A DNA stretch of 64,000 nucleotides from Eledone cirrhosa (GCA_964016885.1 OZ024756.1:40920001-40984000), one strand, 5' to 3'; positions 3,677-32,237 are shown, counted from the first letter of the stretch. Notes: generated from the letters alone by a model not told the origin. Program-made: numbers and translations.

Positions 3677-6600
3677 AGGGAGGGAGGGCCACAACAGCCC
3701 TCATCGTGGGTAGGGGAGGGAGGGCCACAACAGCCCTCATCGTGGGTAGGGGAGGGAGGGCCACAACAGCCCTCATCATGGGTAGGGGAGGGAGGGCCAC
3801 AACAGCCCTCATCATGTGTAGGGGAGGGAGGACCACAACAACCCTCATCATGTGTAGGGGAGGGAGGACCACAACAGCCCTCATCATGTGTAGGGGAGGG
3901 AGGACCACAACAGCCCTCATCATGTGTAGGGGAGGGAGGGCCACAACAGCCCTCATCATGTGTAGGGGAGGGAGGGCCACAACAGCCCTCATCATGTGTA
4001 GGGGAGGGCCACAACAGCCCTCATCATGGGTAGGGGAGGGAGGGCCACAACAGCCCTCATCACGGGGAGGGGAGGGAGGGCCACAACAACCCTCATCATG
4101 TGTAGGGGAGGGAGGGCCACAACAGCCCTCATCCTGTGTAGGGGAGGGAGGGCCACAACAACCCTCATCATGTGTAGGGGAGGGCCACAACAGCCCTCAT
4201 CATGGGTAGGGGAGGGAGGGCCACAACAACCCTCATCATGTGTAGGGGAGGGCCACAACAGCCCTCATCATGGGTAGGGGAGGGAGGGCCACAACAGCCC
4301 TCATCATGTGTAGGGGAGGGAGGACCACAACAGCCCTCATCCTGTGTAGGGGAGGGAGGGCCACAACAGCCCTCATCATGTGTAGGGGAGGGAGGACCAC
4401 AACAGCCCTCATCATGTGTAGGGGAGGGAGGACCACAACAGCCCTCATCCTGTGTAGGGGAGGGAGGACCACAACAGCCCTCATCATGTGTAGGGGAGGG
4501 AGGACCACAACAGCCCTCATCATGTGTAGGGGAGGGAGGGCCACAACAGCCCTCATCATGTGTAGGGGAGGGAGGGCCACAACAGCCCTCATCATGTGTA
4601 GGGGAGGGCCACAACAGCCCTCATCATGGGTAGGGGAGGGAGGGCCACAACAGCCCTCATCACGGGGAGGGGAGGGAGGGCCACAACAACCCTCATCATG
4701 TGTAGGGGAGGGAGGGCCACAACAGCCCTCATCCTGTGTAGGGGAGGGAGGGCCACAACAACCCTCATCATGTGTAGGGGAGGGCCACAACAGCCCTCAT
4801 CATGGGTAGGGGAGGGAGGGCCACAACAACCCTCATCATGTGTAGGGGAGGGCCACAACAGCCCTCATCATGGGTAGGGGAGGGAGGGCCACAACAGCCC
4901 TCATCATGTGTAGGGGAGGGAGGACCACAACAGCCCTCATCCTGTGTAGGGGAGGGAGGGCCACAACAGCCCTCATCATGTGTAGGGGAGGGAGGACCAC
5001 AACAGCCCTCATCATGTGTAGGGGAGGGAGGACCACAACAGCCCTCATCCTGTGTAGGGGAGGGAGGACCACGACAGCCCTCATCCTGTGTAGGGGAGGG
5101 AGGACCACAACAGCCCTCATCATGTGTAGGGGAGGGAGGACCACAACAGCCCTCATCATGTGTAGGGGAGGGAGGGCCACAACAACCCTCATCATGTGTA
5201 GGGGAGGGAGGACCACAACAGCCCTCATCATGTGTAGAGGAGGGAGGACCACAACAGCCCTCATCATGTGTAGAGGAGGGAGGACCACAACAACCCTCAT
5301 CATGTGTAGGGGAGGGAGGACCACAACAGCCCTCATCATGTGTAGGGGAGGGAGGACCACAACAGCCCTCATCCTGTGTAGGGGAGGGAGGACCACAACA
5401 GCCCTCATCATGTGTAGGGGAGGGAGGACCACAACAGCCCTCATCATGTGTAGGGGAGGGAGGGCCACAACAACCCGCATCATGTGTAGGGGAGGGAGGA
5501 CCACAACAGCCCTCATCATGTGTAGAGGAGGGAGGACCACAACAGCCCTCATCATGTGTAGAGGAGGGAGGACCACAACAACCCTCATCATGTGTAGGGG
5601 AGGGAGGACCACAACAGCCCTCATCATGTGTAGGGGAGGGAGGACCACAACAGCCCTCATCCTGTGTAGGGGAGGGAGGACCACAACAACCCTCATCATG
5701 TGTAGGGGAGGGAGGACCACAACAGCCCTCATCCTGTGTAGGGGAGGGAGGACCACAACAGCCCTCATCCTGTGTAGGGGAGGGAGGACCACAACAGCCC
5801 TCATCATGGGTAGGGGAGGGAGGACCACAACAACCCTCATCATGTGTAGGGGAGGGAGGACCACAACAGCCCTCATCCTGTGTAGGGGAGGGAGGGCCAC
5901 AACAACCCTCATCATGTGTAGGGGAGGGAGGACCACAACAGCCCTCATCCTGTGTAGGGGAGGGAGGGCCACAACAGCCCTCATCATGTGTAGGGGAGGG
6001 AGGGCCACAACAGCCCTCATCCTGTGTAGGGGAGGGAGGACCACAACAACCCTCATCATGTGTAGGGGAGGGAGGACCACAACAGCCCTCATCCTGTGTA
6101 GGGGAGGGAGGACCACAACAGCCCTCATCATGTGTAGGGGAGGGAGGACCACAACAGCCCTCATCATGTGTAGGGGAGGGAGGACCACAACAGCCCTCAT
6201 CCTGTGTAGGGGAGGGAGGGCCACAACAGCCCTCATCATGTGTAGGGGAGGGAGGACCACAACAGCCCTCATCATGTGTAGGGGAGGGAGGACCACAACA
6301 GCCCTCATCCTGTGTAGGGGAGGGAGGGCCACAACAGCCCTCATCATGTGTAGAGGAGGGAGGACCACAACAGCCCTCATCCTGTGTAGGGGAGGGAGGG
6401 CCACAACAACCCTCATCATGTGTAGGGGAGGGAGGGCCACAACAGCCCTCATCATGTGTAGGGGAGGGAGGACCACAACAGCCCTCATCCTGTGTAGGGG
6501 AGGGAGGACCACAACAGCCCTCATCCTGTGTAGGGGAGGGAGGACCACAACAGCCCTCATCATGTGGAGGGGAGGGAGGACCACAACAGCCCTCATCATG

Positions 6601-9081
6601 TGTAGGGGAGGGAGGACCACAACAGCCCTCATCCTGTGTAGGGGAGGGAGGACCACAACAGCCCTCATCATGTGTAGGGGAGGGAGGGCCACAACAACCC
6701 TCATCATGTGTAGGGGAGGGAGGACCACAACAGCCCTCATCATGTGTAGGGGAGGGAGGACCACAACTGCCCTCATCATGTGTAGGGGAGGGAGGACCAC
6801 AACAGCCCTCATCATGTGTAGGGGAGGGAGGACCACAACAGCCCTCATCATGTGTAGGGGAGGGAGGACCACAACAGCCCTCATCCTGTGTAGGGGAGGG
6901 AGGACCACAACAGCCCTCATCCTGTGTAGGGGAGGGAGGACCACAACAGCCCTCATCTTGTGTAGGGGAGGGAGGGCCACAACAGCCCTCATCATGGGTA
7001 GGGGAGGGAGGGCCACAACAACCCTCATCATGTGTAGGGGAGGGAGGACCACAACAGCCCTCATCATGTGTAGGGGAGGGAGGACCACAACAGCCCTCAT
7101 CATGTGTAGGGGAGGGAGGACCACAACAGCCCTCATCATGTGTAGGGGAGGGAGGACCACAACAGCCCTCATCATGTGTAGGGGAGGGAGGACCACAACA
7201 GCCCTCATCCTGTGTAGGGGAGGGAGGACCACAACAGCCCTCATCATGTGTAGGGGAGGGAGGACCACAACAGCCCTCATCATGTGTAGGGGAGGGAGGG
7301 CCACAACAGCCCTCATCATGGGTAGGGGAGGGAGGACCACAACAGCCCTCATCATGTGTAGGGGAGGGAGGACCACAACAACCCTCATCATGTGTAGGGC
7401 AGGGAGGACCACAACAGCCCTCATCATGTGTAGGGGAGGGAGGGCCACAACAACCCTCATCCTGTGTAGGGGAGGGAGGACCACAACAGCCCTCATCATG
7501 TGTAGGGGAGGGAGGACCACAACAACCCTCATCATGTGTAGGGGAGGGAGGACCACAACAACCCTCATCATGTGTAGGGGAGGGAGGGCCACGACAGCCC
7601 TCATCATGTGTAGGGGAGGGAGGACCACAACAGCCCTCATCCTGTGTAGGGGAGGGAGGACCACAACAACCCTCATCATGTGTAGGGGAGGGAGGGCCAC
7701 AACAGCCCTCATCATGTGTAGGGGAGGGAGGACCACAACAGCCCTCATCATGTGTAGGGGAGGGAGGACCACAACAGCCCTCATCATGTGTAGGGGAGGG
7801 AGGACGACAACAGCCCTCATCATGTGTAGGGGAGGGAGGACCACAACAGCCCTCATCATGTGTAGGGGAGGGAGGGCCACAACAGCCCTCATCATGTGTA
7901 GGGGAGGGAGGACCACAACAACCCTCATCATGTGTAGGGGAGGGAGGACCACAACAGCCCTCATCCTGTGTAGGGGAGGGAGGACCACAACAACCCTCAT
8001 CATGTGTAGGGGAGGGAGGACCACAACAGCCCTCATCATGTGTAGGGGAGGGAGGACCACAACAGCCCTCATCCTGTGTAGGGGAGGGAGGACCACAACA
8101 ACCCTCATCATGTGTAGGGGAGGGAGGACCACAACAGCCCTCATCCTGTGTAGGGGAGGGAGGACCACAACAACCCTCATCATGTGTAGGGGAGGGAGGA
8201 CCACAACAGCCCTCATCATGTGTAGGGGAGGGAGGACCACAACAGCCCTCATCATGTGTAGGGGAGGGAGGACCACAACAACCCTCATCATGTGTAGGGG
8301 AGGGAGGACCACAACAGCCCTCATCCTGTGTAGGGGAGGGAGGACCACAACAACCCTCATCATGTGTAGGGGAGGGAGGACCACAACAGCCCTCATCCTG
8401 TGTAGGGGAGGGAGGACCACAACAACCCTCATCATGTGTAGGGGAGGGAGGACCACAACAGCCCTCATCCTGTGTAGGGGAGGGAGGACCACAACAACCC
8501 TCATCATGTGTAGGGGAGGGAGGACCACAACAACCCTCATCATGTGTAGGGGAGGGAGGACCACAACAACCCTCATCATGTGTAGGGGAGGGAGGACCAC
8601 AACAGCCCTCATCCTGTGTAGGGGAGGGAGGGCCACAACAGCCCTCATCATGTGTAGGGGAGGGAGGACCACAACAGCCCTCATCATGTGTAGGGGAGGG
8701 AGGGCCACAACAGCCCTCATCATGTGTAGGGGAGGGAGGACCACAACAGCCCTCATCCTGTGTAGGGGAGGGAGGACCACAACAACCCTCATCATGTGTA
8801 GGGGAGGGAGGACCACAACAGCCCTCATCCTGTGTAGGGGAGGGAGGGCCACAACAGCCCTCATCATGTGTAGGGGAGGGAGGACCACAACAGCCCTCAT
8901 CATGTGTAGGGGAGGGAGGGCCACAACAGCCCTCATCATGTGTAGGGGAGGGAGGACCACAACAGCCCTCATCATGTGTAGGGGAGGGAGGACCACAACA
9001 GCCCTCATCCTGTGTAGGGGAGGGAGGACCACAACAGCCCTCATCATGTGTAGGGGAGGGAGGACCACAACAGCCCTCATC
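3677..9081. repeat. G-rich 36-bp minisatellite, ~150 copies
   Basis: Unit GTAGGGGAGGGAGG(G/A)CCACAACA(G/A)CCCTCATC(A/C)TGT. 32-bp deletion variants occur only left of ~4860. There is an exact 600-bp higher-order duplication. Confidence 0.98.
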
Positions 9082-9159
9082 TTCTCCACTTGGATTCAAT
9101 GAAAACCACAAATTATATTGCAGCTCAGAACAATTCAACTCCATTTCCTACATACAGAC

Positions 9160-11665
9160 AAATATATACATACATGTATACACATATACATACATGTATA
9201 CACATATACATACATGTATACACATATACATACATGTATACACATATACATACATGTATACACATATACATACAACATGTATACACATATACATACATGT
9301 ATACACATATACATACATGTATACACATATACATACATGTATACACATATACATACATGTATACACATATACATACAACATGTATACACATATACATACA
9401 TGTATACACATATACATACATGTATACACATATACATACATGTATACACATATACATACATGTATACACATATACATACAACATGTATACACATATACAT
9501 ACATGTATACACATATACATACATGTATACACATATACATACATGTATACACATATACATACATGTATACACATATACATACAACATGTATACACATATA
9601 CATACATGTATACACATATACATACATGTATACACATATACATACATGTATACACATATACATACAACATGTATACACATATACATACATGTATACACAT
9701 ATACATACATGTATACACATATACATACATGTATACACATATACATACAACATATATACACATATACATACAACCTGTATACACATATACATACAACATG
9801 TATACACATATACATACAACCTGTATACACATATACATACAACATGTATACACATATACATTCAACATATATACACATATACATACAACATGTATACACA
9901 TATACATTCAACATATATACACATATACATACATGTATACACATATACATACAACCTGTATACACATATACATACAACATATATACACATATACATACAT
10001 GTATACACATATACATTCAACATATATACACATATACATACATGTATACACATATACATACAACCTGTATACACATATACATACAACCTGTATACACATA
10101 TACATACATATATACACATATACATACATGTATACACATATACATACAACATGTATACACATATACATACATGTATACACATATACATACAACATGTATA
10201 CACATATACATACAACATGTATACACATATACATACAACCTGTATACACACATACATACAACATATATACACATATACATACAACATGTATACACATATA
10301 CATACAACATATATACACATATACATACAACATGTATACACATATACATACAACGTGTATACACATATACATACAACATGTATACACATATACATACAAC
10401 CTGTATACACACATACATTCAACATGTATACACATATACATACAACATGTATACACATATACATACAACATGTATACACATATACATACAACATGTATAC
10501 ACATATACATACAACATGTATACACATATACATACAACATGTATACACATATACATACAACATGTATACACATATACATACAACATATATACACATATAC
10601 ATACAACATATATACACATATACATACAACATGTATACACATATACATACATGTATACACATATACATACAACATGTATACACATATACATACAACATGT
10701 ATACACATATACATACAACATGTATACACATATACATACAACATGTATACACATATACATACATGTATACACATATACATACAACATGTATACACATATA
10801 CATACATGTATACACATATACATACAACATGTATACACATATACATACAACCTGTATACACATATACATACAACTTGTATACACATATACATACATGTAT
10901 ACACATATACATACAACATGTATACACATATACATACAACATGTATACACATATACATACAACATGTATACACATATACATACAACCTGTATACACATAT
11001 ACATACAACATATATACACATATACATACATGTATACACATATACATACAACATGTATACACATATACATACAACTTGTATACACATATACATACAACAT
11101 GTATACACATATACATACAACATGTATACACATATACATACAACATGTATACACATATACATACAACATGTATACACATATACATACAACATATATACAC
11201 ATATACATACAACATATATACACATATACATACAACCTGTATACACATATACATACAACCTGTATACACATATACATACAACATGTATACACATATACAT
11301 ACAACATGTATACACATATACATACAACATGTATACACATATACATACAACATATATACACATATACATACAACATATATACACATATACATACAACATA
11401 TATACACATATACATACAACCTGTATACACATATACATACAACCTGTATACACATATACATACATGTATACACATATACATACAACATGTATACACATAT
11501 ACATACATGTATACACATATACATACAACATATATACACATATACATACAACATATATACACATATACATACAACATATATACACATATACATACATGTA
11601 TACACATATACATACAACATATATACACATATACATACAACATATATACACATATACATACAACA
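9160..11665. repeat. 20/23-bp AC-rich minisatellite
   Basis: Unit CATGTATACACATATACATA, with or without CAA; ~2.5 kb. Confidence 0.98.
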
Positions 11666-13042: not shown

Positions 13043-13631
13043 ATTTCTATATTAAATATATAATGTGATAAATGTAGAACCTCTTTTTCTTCAAATAGAA
13101 TTTATCAAAGTTTGAGCAAACTATGCGTATATATGTGTATGTTGTGAGTGTACGTATAAGTGTGTATGTGTGTTTTGTATGTGAGTGTCTATATGTGCAT
13201 GTGTGTTTGCACACACGTAAATGTGTTTTTTAAGACAAAGACATAACCAAAAGGTGCAACCAGTCGTTGGGTTGCCACTCTTGATGCTTTATAGTCAACC
13301 ATATAGGGCTGAGTTTTAAAGGAAATCCTGACAGTTACTTTGAAGTTTTGCCTTTAATCCAAATATTTTCTGGTCTGCTCTGGTCTCTTCCCACCCTCAT
13401 TACTGAGGATTTATCTTGGACAATCTATATGTCCATGAATCTCATCAGGAAAAAAATGATGTCGGTAGATTCTGAATCCTCACCCAACCAGCATTTTCTG
13501 TGACTCTATATGAAAACTGTTTCATCGTTTCTTAATTCAAACATTGAGTTTTGATGTTATAAAGAAGTGTACTTAACAAGCCTAAACTTTGTAGCACTCT
13601 ATTCAAAAGCAATAATATGTCTTGAAATTTT

Positions 13632-13637
13632 TTTATT
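13632..13637 (-). terminator. candidate polyadenylation signal AATAAA of the IQ gene
   Basis: AATAAA ~36 nt after the TAG at 13673. The hexamer is common in AT-rich DNA, so it is weak evidence alone. Confidence 0.35.
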
Positions 13638-13672
13638 TCTTATGGGTGCTGCTGCTGCTTATTCTAGTACAT

Positions 13673-13705
13673 CTACGTTTTTGACGTCTTCCTTTTTTTG
13701 TTAGC
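13673..13705 (-). CDS. putative terminal coding exon of the IQ-motif gene (ANKKRKTSKT*)
   Basis: Acceptor CTTATTTTCTGTTGGCAG with an upstream CTAAAC branch-like motif. Phase 0 matches the upstream donor. Basic residues continue the IQ helix. Confidence 0.55.
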   Translation of the reverse strand, partial: ANKKRKTSKT

Positions 13706-15601
13706 CTGCCAACAGAAAATAAGTTTAGAAAATTTTCTGCAATATTTTGACAGATTCAGCTGTGAGAATCAGGTTACCAACATATAAATACTCTGAAATG
13801 ACCAGACCAGTCGCAATGCTTTTTGTTGAAACTTCAAAGATCCTAATGAATCAAAGACAACTGATAAGGCCCAATTAGTTATCTACTTTATGGTAAAATC
13901 TTGACCAATGCTAATCTTGCTAACCCCATACATGGCTTTAGTGGCTCTCACTAGCCAGTCATGTATATGTGATTTAGTTACCCCCTACCAATCACAACAT
14001 GAAGAATGATTTGTTCTTAGCTAATAACCACTCCTACAGTTGCTTCACTAGAATTATGGCACATTGGTTCTTTGTTCTGACACAAACCCTAATGACATTG
14101 TCTCCAAGAGGCTGGTGCTATGATAAAAGGCACATGATAGAGCATGGAATGGTGAGATGCAGACCTTGTCCAACCTGGGAGGCTGGTACACCCACTTCAG
14201 TACTGATTTAATTGAAATATATAAAATGTATAATTAGTGAGATTTGTGTTATTGTCCATCTAGAACGGTCTACAAATCAAAGCTAATTTACTACACTCTC
14301 ATGTCCTTTGTAAAACATCAGATAAATGTTGCAGAATGGTGAGTACATTACCTTTGGGGATAGCAAAAGAGATGACTGAAAGAGTCAGTCTAACTTGCTG
14401 AGACAAATTCTTGTGAATGGTTATTTCCATCATGATCGAGATAGGTAAGGAGGTGATTTGGGGACCTAAGATGCCAGATATTTTCACCCTATGGATCCAA
14501 TAGTTGGCACTTAACTTGTGCTCTTCAGCATGTTGGCCAATGGAAATTGGGTCTAATGTTTAAATATATTCAATGGGTTTAATAAAATGGTTTGAAAATT
14601 GTTTATTTAAATTTGTCTAGAGTTCTACTCCAAGTGAGATCATATTTTCTTTAACTTAGTGTCTATTCCATTACATTTCTACACAGAATTAGTGTCTTTT
14701 CCAAACTGCACTCTGTCATTTCATATGTGAATATTGTGAATAAGGTTGGATTTATGTGGGTGAACACATTTTCTATTTTGTATACAAATAAGTAACCTAC
14801 TATAATCAGTTAGAATTACAAAACCATTCCATACAAAATGTTAGAAAACCAAAAGTTCTAAGACAGTCAAAAAGACTTTTGTATGCTTCTATAAATATTA
14901 AACATTGATACAAAAATATATTATAAAATTACATCTGTATATATACAGCATTTAGTTAACCAAGACTGCATAAATGTGTATATAAATGTACATAATTTTA
15001 TTATACATACAGAAGTAACTTTATAATATATATACTGTATAGATGTGACTGACACTTGTATAGAAATTTACATATAAACAAACAATGTTTACATGTCTAT
15101 ATATGAAAACTGTGTAAATTTATATAAACCAAGACTACGTAAATGTGTATATATATAATTTATACATTTTTTCGGCATATAGACTTGTAAACAGGCCATT
15201 TTTACATGTCAATATACTAAAAGTGTTACATATGCATTTACAGTGTTTGTTACCTCTATACTGTATATATATACATATAATCACTTAATCATATACTTTG
15301 GTTGTTTAACACACAATAAATATGTGAATTAACTAAAATATATATCTCAAGAGATTTCTGAGTATCATCCTATCATCAATGGGTAAACATAAGTCCACCA
15401 ATACATGTATCAAGGATGGGTTCAATTTCAAATGATTTCTCTGAAAAAAATAATGGAATTTCAAACAACCCAACTATGATTTTAAAAGAAAAAATTACAA
15501 TTTAATTATGAGTCAATAAAAACTGTTTTAGACTGCATCATTAACCAGTAATCTTTAACTGAAAACAATAACAAGGAACAATAAAAGAAAAAGCAGTTTA
15601 C

Positions 15602-15692
15602 CTTTAAATCTTTTCGTGTTTTGTACCCTTTATAATTAGCTTGTATTTTTGTGGCAGCATCATCGAACGGTTCCTCTTCCATTGCCTCAATT
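15602..15692 (-). CDS. exon encoding an IQ calmodulin-binding motif (IEAMEEEPFDDAATKIQANYKGYKTRKDLK)
   Basis: Acceptor TTGTTTTTATTTTAATAG and donor AAG|GTAAAC. The open frame matches IQxxx[RK]Gxxx[RK] with the AATKIQA context of neuromodulin, neurogranin, Sp17 and igloo-type motifs. In-frame ATG at 15682. Confidence 0.85.
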
Positions 15693-15786
15693 CTATTAAA
15701 ATAAAAACAATTGTAATCAATGATTATTCAGTACCTTACAACTGTTTTATATCATAGAAACTTCAGTGTAAAAATTGATGGTGATT

Positions 15787-17616: not shown

Positions 17617-17918
17617 AACCGGGTGCAGTCTGCGACTAACCCAGGTTCTGCTGCACGTCGGGGGCTGAGGAGGCCAAACTCTTCAAGTACCGGTCGCTCT
17701 CCGACAGGTTCGCGGTTGTACCCTTGGCAGTGAAGACTTCTGGTGTCCTCGGCCCTAGGGCTACCTCCCTACTCACCACCATAGGCGCTGAGCTGGCCAA
17801 TCGCAGGTGTGAGCCCCGTGAGCTGGAATGGCTTTTCCAGTGCGTCTCCCTTGCCGTCCTCTGGGGAAACGTCCTCTCCATTCTGTCTGCTGGGGTTGAG
17901 GGGTGGCCACTAATATGA
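17617..17918 (+). mobile_element. 3' fragment of a CRE-clade non-LTR retrotransposon (restriction-like endonuclease C-terminus)
   Basis: GC- and CpG-rich island translating PGSAA/AEEAKLFKYRSLSDRFAVVPLAVKTSGVLGPRA...WLFQCVSLAVLWGNVLSIL. This fits the CRE pattern AE..K..KY..L...F.P.A.ET.G..G...QR.S.A..RGN. One frameshift near 17660. Confidence 0.8.
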
Positions 17919-26289: not shown

Positions 26290-26324
26290 GAGAATTTTTT
26301 TTCAGGAACAGTTTCTGCTTGTGA
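26290..26324 (-). CDS. candidate 35-nt exon (SQAETVPEKKF/S)
   Basis: Acceptor TGTCTTTTCTGTCTAATTTTAG and donor CTC|GTAAGT. Phase 0->2 is compatible with the IQ exon. Confidence 0.35.
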
Positions 26325-32169: not shown

Positions 32170-32237
32170 ATAATAATCCGTATTGTATTGGAGATCTGTT
32201 AAGTTAGCAGATGATGCTACAGGATCATGGCCTGTCT
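32170..32237 (-). CDS. candidate 68-nt exon (xTGHDPVASSANLTDLQYNTDYY)
   Basis: Strong acceptor TTTATTTTTATATTTCAG, donor TAT|GTAAGT and only one open frame (phase 1->0). LTDLQYNTDY resembles the FN3 L..L.P.T.Y motif. Confidence 0.5.

Follow-up and report, generated by a model that had tools for sequence, protein, structure and literature searches.

A minus-strand IQ exon of Eledone cirrhosa most likely belongs to a multi-IQ Sp17 (SPA17) gene

The pairing of an IQ helix with calmodulin is textbook knowledge. Three domains are described in vertebrate Sp17 (SPA17): one resembling RIIalpha that binds AKAPs, a central one, and one at the C-terminus that binds calmodulin (PMC11276731, PMC2753635). 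Its extended docking/dimerization (D/D) domain spans residues 1-75. The protein assembles into dimers and tetramers and, when paired with ROPN1L in a heterodimer, binds AKAP18 tightly (PMC8339350). Dimerization, AKAP binding and a location in cilia and flagella are known for SPA17 in vertebrates (PMC8339350, PMC11276731, PMC2753635). The other described proteins with which the present locus can be compared are the calpacitins. Neurogranin and neuromodulin have a PKC-site Ser and a central Arg at set positions of the IQ motif (PMC3589724), PEP-19 has an acidic sequence with hydrophobic anchors at -16, -14 and -12 and a Pro at -9 (PMC5122967), igloo has been grouped with the calpacitins (PMC9618489), and GAP-43 and BASP1 bind calmodulin and are acidic proteins acylated at the N-terminus (PMC7494789).

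At the Eledone cirrhosa locus described here, an exon first read as part of a minimal calpacitin-like gene (exon A) is very probably an internal exon, carrying the first of seven IQ motifs in a predicted 563-aa protein from a 261-kb Sp17 (SPA17) gene. It lies between an RIIa exon and a middle exon on one side and four further IQ exons on the other, all on the same strand and in the order expected from a homologue.

Exon A and the IQ exons downstream

The window is a stretch of 64,000 nt (G000:C17:40920001-40984000), part of a 3.0-Gb genome; positions without a prefix are counted within it. The initial annotation had proposed a hidden spliced gene on the minus strand, in which an ATG at 15682 opens an IQ exon joined to a short terminal exon (exon B) to encode a microprotein of 37 aa.

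15602..15692, minus strand: exon A, 91 nt, phase 2 in and phase 0 out, first IQ of the gene

The minus-strand translation from 15682 to 15602 reads as claimed, 27 codons followed by an AAG|GTAAAC donor, and the IQ motif that it contains exceeds chance, scoring 28.4 bits with Pfam IQ (cut-off 20.3 bits, E 1e-6). Within the window, the IQ pattern matches the minus strand at exon A alone, and its single match on the plus strand does not resemble an IQ. The proposed start codon has a good context (G at -3 and +4), but it lies 10 nt within an exon that has an acceptor of its own at 15692 (TAG|AATTG) and a frame open to that acceptor. The acceptor is a good one (score 4.8, rank 16 among 901 AGs in the intron before it), and with the frame open to it, exon A has the appearance of an internal exon with phase-2 entry. 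These and all later splice-site scores come from a generic, self-written matrix that was not trained on the Eledone cirrhosa genome. Three read runs (one sample, one study, possibly the assembly's own, and so not independent support) matched 14958-15780 with zero differences and contained a share of 1.00, all or nearly all, of 256 sampled words from 13200-15720. The same runs gave no coverage of 13548-14069, the part in which exon B and its A7 run lie.

We searched 430 kb around the window with the IQ profile and found seven motifs, all on the minus strand. Six of them lie beyond exon A, in four downstream exons, all phase 0/0:

C17:40891685-40891608, minus strand: second IQ exon, 25 of 26 residues identical to Argonauta
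C17:40867461-40866994, minus strand: two-IQ exon, 90% identical to Argonauta
C17:40850086-40849925, minus strand: IQ5 exon, 162 nt, phase 0/0, four of four PEP-19 anchors, absent from the Argonauta model
From C17:40843458, minus strand: last two-IQ exon, 44% identical to Argonauta

The locus holds 7 of the 57 IQ matches listed genome-wide (150 of 264 candidates scored), all over the Pfam cut-off, on the minus strand and within 93 kb. The phase-0 donor of exon A fits the next IQ exon at C17:40891685, and the two would meet exactly where the first IQ meets the second in the Argonauta hians protein GAB1603184.1 (P0155; Ahia01_000599000, 510 aa, RIIa plus IQ). This protein, itself an unnamed gene prediction (hypothetical protein), has the same exon order as the Eledone gene. 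The IQ5 exon may be a cassette. A poly-histidine tract stands before IQ3 (C17:40867461 onward, minus strand) and is present in Argonauta as well.

By exon, identity to GAB1603184.1 is 46/51 (90%) for the RIIa exon, 16/23 for the middle exon, 14/30 for exon A and 25/26 for the next IQ exon. Exon A aligns ungapped at the position of the first Argonauta IQ, yet its similarity is much lower than the 90-96% of the RIIa exon and the next IQ exon, and the Argonauta first IQ has a long acidic linker, unlike exon A. The Argonauta first-IQ segment even matches IQ6 (E 0.004) better than exon A (E 0.3); all five of its genome matches fall in the Sp17 locus, so that no better copy was found elsewhere. The same low identity, together with an undetectable bivalve-type linker exon (see below), could mean that exon A is a decaying, unused exon left after its upstream partner was lost. 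With an intact IQ well above the Pfam cut-off, an intact acceptor and donor and no stop, we regard such decay as scarcely credible. We consider it well supported that exon A belongs to the Sp17 gene; the splice route into it is less firmly backed.

Other features of this region were noted in passing. The intron after exon A contains two large minisatellites, a 36-mer in about 151 copies (3678-9081) and a 23-mer in about 114 copies (9158-11665), both of which produce long spurious ORFs. Fragments resembling LINE reverse transcriptase or Tc1/mariner transposase ORFs were seen by eye at 17640-17915 (plus strand) and at C17:40919291-40919854, 40787350-40789168, 40822434-40823506 and 40851072-40851650. 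An acidic, tandem-repeat ORF of 225 codons between exon A and the next IQ exon (C17:40916394-40915720, minus strand) was considered as an exon and set aside, being without convincing splice sites. A DCX-IQ gene, suggested by doublecortin-domain IQ proteins in five of six rows of a search, was also rejected: none of seven DCX matches lies on C17.

RIIa and middle exons and the route into exon A

Upstream on the same strand, two further exons are recognizable by homology:

C17:41104200-41104047, minus strand: RIIa exon, 154 coding nt, phase-1 GC donor, outside the window
32170..32237, minus strand: Sp17 middle exon, 68 nt, phase 1 in and phase 0 out, second half of the extended docking/dimerization region

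When the genome was searched for RIIa, six matches were obtained, five above cut-off; one of them is on C17, on the minus strand, 152 kb upstream of the middle exon. This exon scores 51 bits with Pfam RIIa; its best three matches among solved structures are SPA17 (E 3e-16 to 8e-13), followed by RSP7 and PKA-RIIalpha (E 2e-7 to 3e-7). Judged by eye, the other four matches over cut-off look PKA-RI-like (C4), PKA-RII-like (C1, C20) and like another D/D protein (C26), which leaves the C17 exon as the sole SPA17-type RIIa found. A protein search with the exon returned two proteins among 47 candidates, GAB1603184.1 and the Logan-derived product P0156 (129 aa), and the latter leaves coding sequence at the same point as the Eledone RIIa donor. 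A metagenome scan added seven distant RIIa relatives with 49-63% identity. Further upstream, two divergent plus-strand neighbours were observed, a HIT zinc-finger ORF that stays below cut-off with 21.9 bits (L039:6919-7431) and a small methyltransferase ORF (L040:4691-5407; Pfam MTS, 40.4 bits).

The middle exon first came to light when one IQ-search protein matched 32238-32155 by its non-IQ part. It is matched in tblastn by Sp17-type proteins (eight of nine such queries), and the segment that follows RIIa in the Sp17-type N-terminus is present in 10 fetched proteins. While homology establishes its identity, its splicing is suggested by the sites themselves: the acceptor ranks second among the 901 AGs, and the donor is GTAAGT. 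At the end of the RIIa exon stands G|GCAAG, a GC donor in phase 1, and a join to the window exon at 32237 would complete a codon for Glu. The donor at C17:41104047 is otherwise of strong consensus, and the intron between the two exons is likely a GC-AG intron; its length of 152 kb was counted against the model.

A direct join of the middle exon to the first AG of exon A brings phase 0 to phase 2, and the frame stops after 75 residues. The gene model therefore needs a 35-nt exon, some other linker or the poor distal AG at 15685. We enumerated the open phase-0-to-2 candidates in the 16.5-kb intron and found 782 with any AG/GT, of which five have good sites at both ends. Among these five, one alone gives, together with exon A, 42 codons, the length of Argonauta segment 75-116:

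26290..26324, minus strand: candidate linker exon, 35 nt, phase 0 in and phase 2 out, putative in-frame bridge from the middle exon to exon A

Its similarity to Argonauta is weak, with 0 of 12 residues identical ungapped. Among 8636 random open 12-mers, 82 do equally well, and slightly better alignments come from a few candidates whose splice sites are bad. The 35 nt are single-copy DNA in a genome search. The IQ-bearing linker exon of bivalves and snails was not found here by exon enumeration, HMM or local alignment, and the enumeration list included the 35-nt candidate, at low score. Splicing of the whole chain, above all through this linker, is proposed from sequence.

Exon A could also sit in the same Sp17 gene by another route, through the distal AG 15685, through a different linker (29718-29552 or 20329-20319), or as an often-skipped cassette. 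Four more good-site phase-0-to-2 candidates exist, and the distal AG joins the middle exon to exon A directly in frame, in phase 0. That AG is a poor one, a GAG with a score of -1.6 and rank 206 of 901, and the other candidates miss the Argonauta length. When the linker and exon A are skipped together, the frame stays open at 521 aa, and exon A could for this reason be a cassette. Taken together, we judge these other routes unlikely.

With this linker, the RIIa, middle, linker, A and downstream exons give an open frame of about 563 aa with seven IQs, of which 328 of 484 aligned residues are identical to GAB1603184.1; the C-terminal residues of the Argonauta model are unlike those of Eledone. 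The gene spans 261,378 bases. The exon positions, their homology, the splice-site motifs, the phases and the open joined frame are read directly from the DNA, and they support the earlier claim of a real spliced gene at this place. With its GC-AG first intron, the 35-nt candidate exon and the 152-kb intron, the gene is easy to mis-model, which gives the present model some value for annotation.

Exon B and possible short products of the locus

We then examined the terminal exon that had been proposed for the microprotein, and its surroundings.

13673..13705, minus strand: exon B, possible alternative terminal exon, 10 codons and TAG
13632..13637, minus strand: AATAAA hexamer about 35 nt past the exon B stop, possible intronic polyadenylation signal

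Exon B is present as described, 33 nt after a pyrimidine tract and CAG, with TAG at its end; the A7 run lies at 13693-13699, and the adjacent frame yields the longer acidic tail that had been given for a run of eight A. A phase-0 join of exon A to exon B would hold when checked in the sequence. The use of this join is another matter. In the 43.9-kb intron from exon A to the next homologous exon, 32 of 2209 AGs, exon B included, score at least as well as the exon B acceptor, and between exons A and B the acceptors at 15473 and 15440 (besides 15558) outscore it. Only two of the 32, one of them exon B, have a frame of at least 8 codons and an AATAAA at most 100 nt past the stop, and exon B is among the top two of the 32 in purine content. 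Exon B is single-copy DNA by genome search; a short dispersed repeat, matched by many unrelated contigs, occupies 14933-15290 between exons A and B.

With the upstream exons spliced ahead of it, exon B would terminate an Sp17 of 126 aa and not a 37-aa peptide, since the RIIa, middle, linker, A and B exons join in an open frame of 126 aa. Exon B could accordingly be a real alternative last exon, formed by intronic polyadenylation, in a compact single-IQ Sp17 compatible with the seven-IQ gene. The layout of this form would be near that of the vertebrate Sp17 chains (147 and 151 aa), and it is perhaps a testis or cilia form. Besides the open frame and this likeness, the AATAAA past the stop, in a combination that only two of the 32 equal acceptors offer, speaks for it. 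Against it stand the ordinary acceptor, one of 32 and lower in score than 15473 and 15440, a tail without a homologue among the top-scoring IQ motifs inspected, and the fact that the supporting features were chosen after the exon had been seen. We are inclined to doubt this compact form.

The 37-aa product itself would require an internal promoter and a non-coding first exon leading into exon A, translation from ATG 15682 and an end in exon B. In its favour are the context of the ATG, the AATAAA near exon B and the phase-2 acceptor of exon A, which misfits the middle exon directly. However, two unproven events are required; exon A occupies the slot of the Argonauta first IQ, for which a linker of exactly the right length exists; the motif is without the PKC Ser and the central Arg; and a Met start drops the -16 and -14 anchors of PEP-19. 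A search for proteins of 23-74 aa that have three words in common with the query, a weak test, gave none. Long in-frame coding exons, the RIIa and middle exons, most likely lie upstream on the same strand, and this is what was to count against the microprotein. We hold it to be very improbable, though the locus may have a minor short isoform. The preferred reading remains that exon A is internal to the seven-IQ gene.

A candidate alternative first exon and comparison with Sp17 and calpacitins

The search of the first intron revealed one more candidate coding exon.

C17:41018998-41016469, minus strand: acidic Met-Gly-Cys exon in intron 1, 843 codons, 25% Asp+Glu, phase-1 donor like that of the RIIa exon

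The ORF has 846 codons, with the phase-1 donor placed three codons short of the stop; among the 843 other phase-1 positions that it contains, only 2 have donors of that level. Joined to the middle exon and onward, it gives an open frame of 1355 aa. Homologues show a comparable arrangement: isoforms X1 (RIIa) and X2 (Met-Gly start) of Rhopilema have their last 417 residues in common and diverge at the RIIa/middle junction, and proteins of the snails Lymnaea and Biomphalaria have Met-Gly starts joined to the same middle segment. The Met-Gly leaders of homologues are 17-60 residues long, and the Eledone exon is far longer. It gave no Pfam family over cut-off and no Atlas match; the full ORF has no exact counterpart in the database, and blastp against 171 collected proteins found no match to the exon. 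We conclude that it is likely an alternative first exon and somewhat favour its being spliced to the middle exon, although the ORF could be a nested single-exon gene. Because the first-exon swap is seen in the jellyfish gene and in two snails, it may be an old animal device.

Myristoylation follows the rule Met-Gly-x-x-x-Ser, which the start of this exon meets only loosely, with Ser at 4 and Gly at 6. If used, the exon would be myristoylated and palmitoylated, tethering the IQ array to membranes, and the 1355-aa product would be a GAP-43/igloo-like protein, possibly neuronal. Given the likeness to GAP-43 and BASP1 and the grouping of igloo with calpacitins, a lipid-anchored isoform of the Sp17 gene is plausible but unproven. 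In the form with the RIIa exon, by analogy with the family, the N-terminal RIIa-type domain would dimerize, alone or with a ROPN1L-type partner, and the dimer would dock, in cilia or the flagellum of sperm, on the helix of an AKAP. The tail, long and disordered, may hold several calmodulins at low calcium, to be released or retuned as calcium rises, so that the protein would act as a tethered calmodulin reservoir. The IQ contributed by exon A would be plain and basic, lacking the PKC switch of neurogranin, and IQ5-IQ7, with a PEP-19-type acidic anchor, are predicted to speed calcium exchange on the calmodulin C-lobe. Only tentatively, and with less than even confidence in the reading as a whole, neuronal role included, do we suggest a calmodulin-buffer gene with two addresses, in which the RIIa exon directs the product to AKAPs in cilia or sperm and the Met-Gly-Cys exon to membranes.

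The initial annotation had placed exon A with the calpacitins and igloo. In kind this kinship stands, as IQ5, IQ6 and IQ7, which are outside the window, have four of four PEP-19 anchor positions and IQ3 three of four; exon A itself, with one of four, is the least calpacitin-like of the acid-flanked IQ motifs of the gene. A start at Met 15682 would omit the -16 and -14 positions altogether. Exon A has Asn at the position of the PKC serine (IQ+3) and Lys at that of the central Arg (IQ+5), and not one of the seven IQs has Ser at +3. Since Lys at +5 is frequent among Sp17-type homologues, where 41 of 109 motifs have it, it does not rule out calmodulin binding. Exon A matches the neuromodulin IQ of PDB 4E53 weakly (E 0.1), and the Argonauta orthologue matches PEP-19 at E 5e-4. 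These results suggest that the gene works partly like a calpacitin, via motifs outside the window, all binding being predicted from sequence.

A HMMER search gave 963 proteins at E <= 0.001, and the best 150 of the 963 all have at least four matched stretches; no single-IQ relative is among these 150, where multi-IQ proteins crowd them out. Clusters of RIIa plus multi-IQ proteins were seen in molluscs, flatworms and nematodes (scores 0.91, 0.89 and 0.89, with recognition below the 2300 mark, and hence a lead only). Such proteins are already in databases under uninformative, automatic names, and the flagged exon itself matters little beside them. In PMC11202624, Sp17 is merely a sex-related candidate in the giant clam, with no match in the supplement, and SPA17 is unmentioned in bioRxiv 2025.05.19.654877. 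We found no paper linking Sp17 with igloo or describing the first-exon swap in a literature search whose coverage was thin for subscription journals and nil for bioRxiv supplements. If the two-address reading is true, one gene sends PEP-19-type calmodulin modulators to AKAP sites or membranes, and the swap could connect Sp17 with the way in which GAP-43-like proteins of invertebrates arose. The Met-Gly-Cys exon, if a real alternative start, would make the gene a candidate cephalopod equivalent of GAP-43/neurogranin.

The traits of SPA17 are found together at this locus. The RIIa-type domain is nearer to SPA17 than to PKA-RII, the conserved part of the extended D/D that comes behind the core helices (about residues 52-75) is present at 32237-32170, and the C-terminal IQ motif, putatively calmodulin-binding, is present in seven copies over the Pfam cut-off. 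Given the 35-nt exon that we infer, the RIIa, middle and IQ parts join in an open frame and are colinear with a one-chain homologue. Vertebrate SPA17/Sp17 (PDB 7MY4, 9FQR, 8J07) has in common with this gene the N-terminal extended D/D domain of RIIa type, the middle segment and the C-terminal IQ (PMC8339350, PMC11276731), but its chains have one IQ, whereas the Eledone gene has seven IQs, about 563 aa and probably a second first exon. The proteins of Mytilus (XP_052061000), Haliotis (XP_067676888), Rhopilema (LOC135684955), Lymnaea (CAL1537237) and Biomphalaria (XP_055866575) have the N-terminus and the middle segment of the Sp17 type, behind which acidic-IQ units recur, and in some of their isoforms a Met-Gly start replaces RIIa at this junction. 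Bivalve and snail forms mostly differ in an extra IQ-bearing segment after the middle exon, which was not found in Eledone. We conclude that the gene is a SPA17 orthologue of the multi-IQ kind known from other invertebrates. With the calpacitins (neurogranin, neuromodulin/GAP-43, PEP-19 and Drosophila igloo) it shares an IQ preceded by acidic residues, and igloo and Sp17 presumably belong to one PANTHER family. It departs from the small stand-alone single-IQ product of the calpacitins, as exon A lies among the coding exons of a seven-IQ gene, and to our knowledge neurogranin, GAP-43 and PEP-19 are without the RIIa domain that the Eledone gene has.
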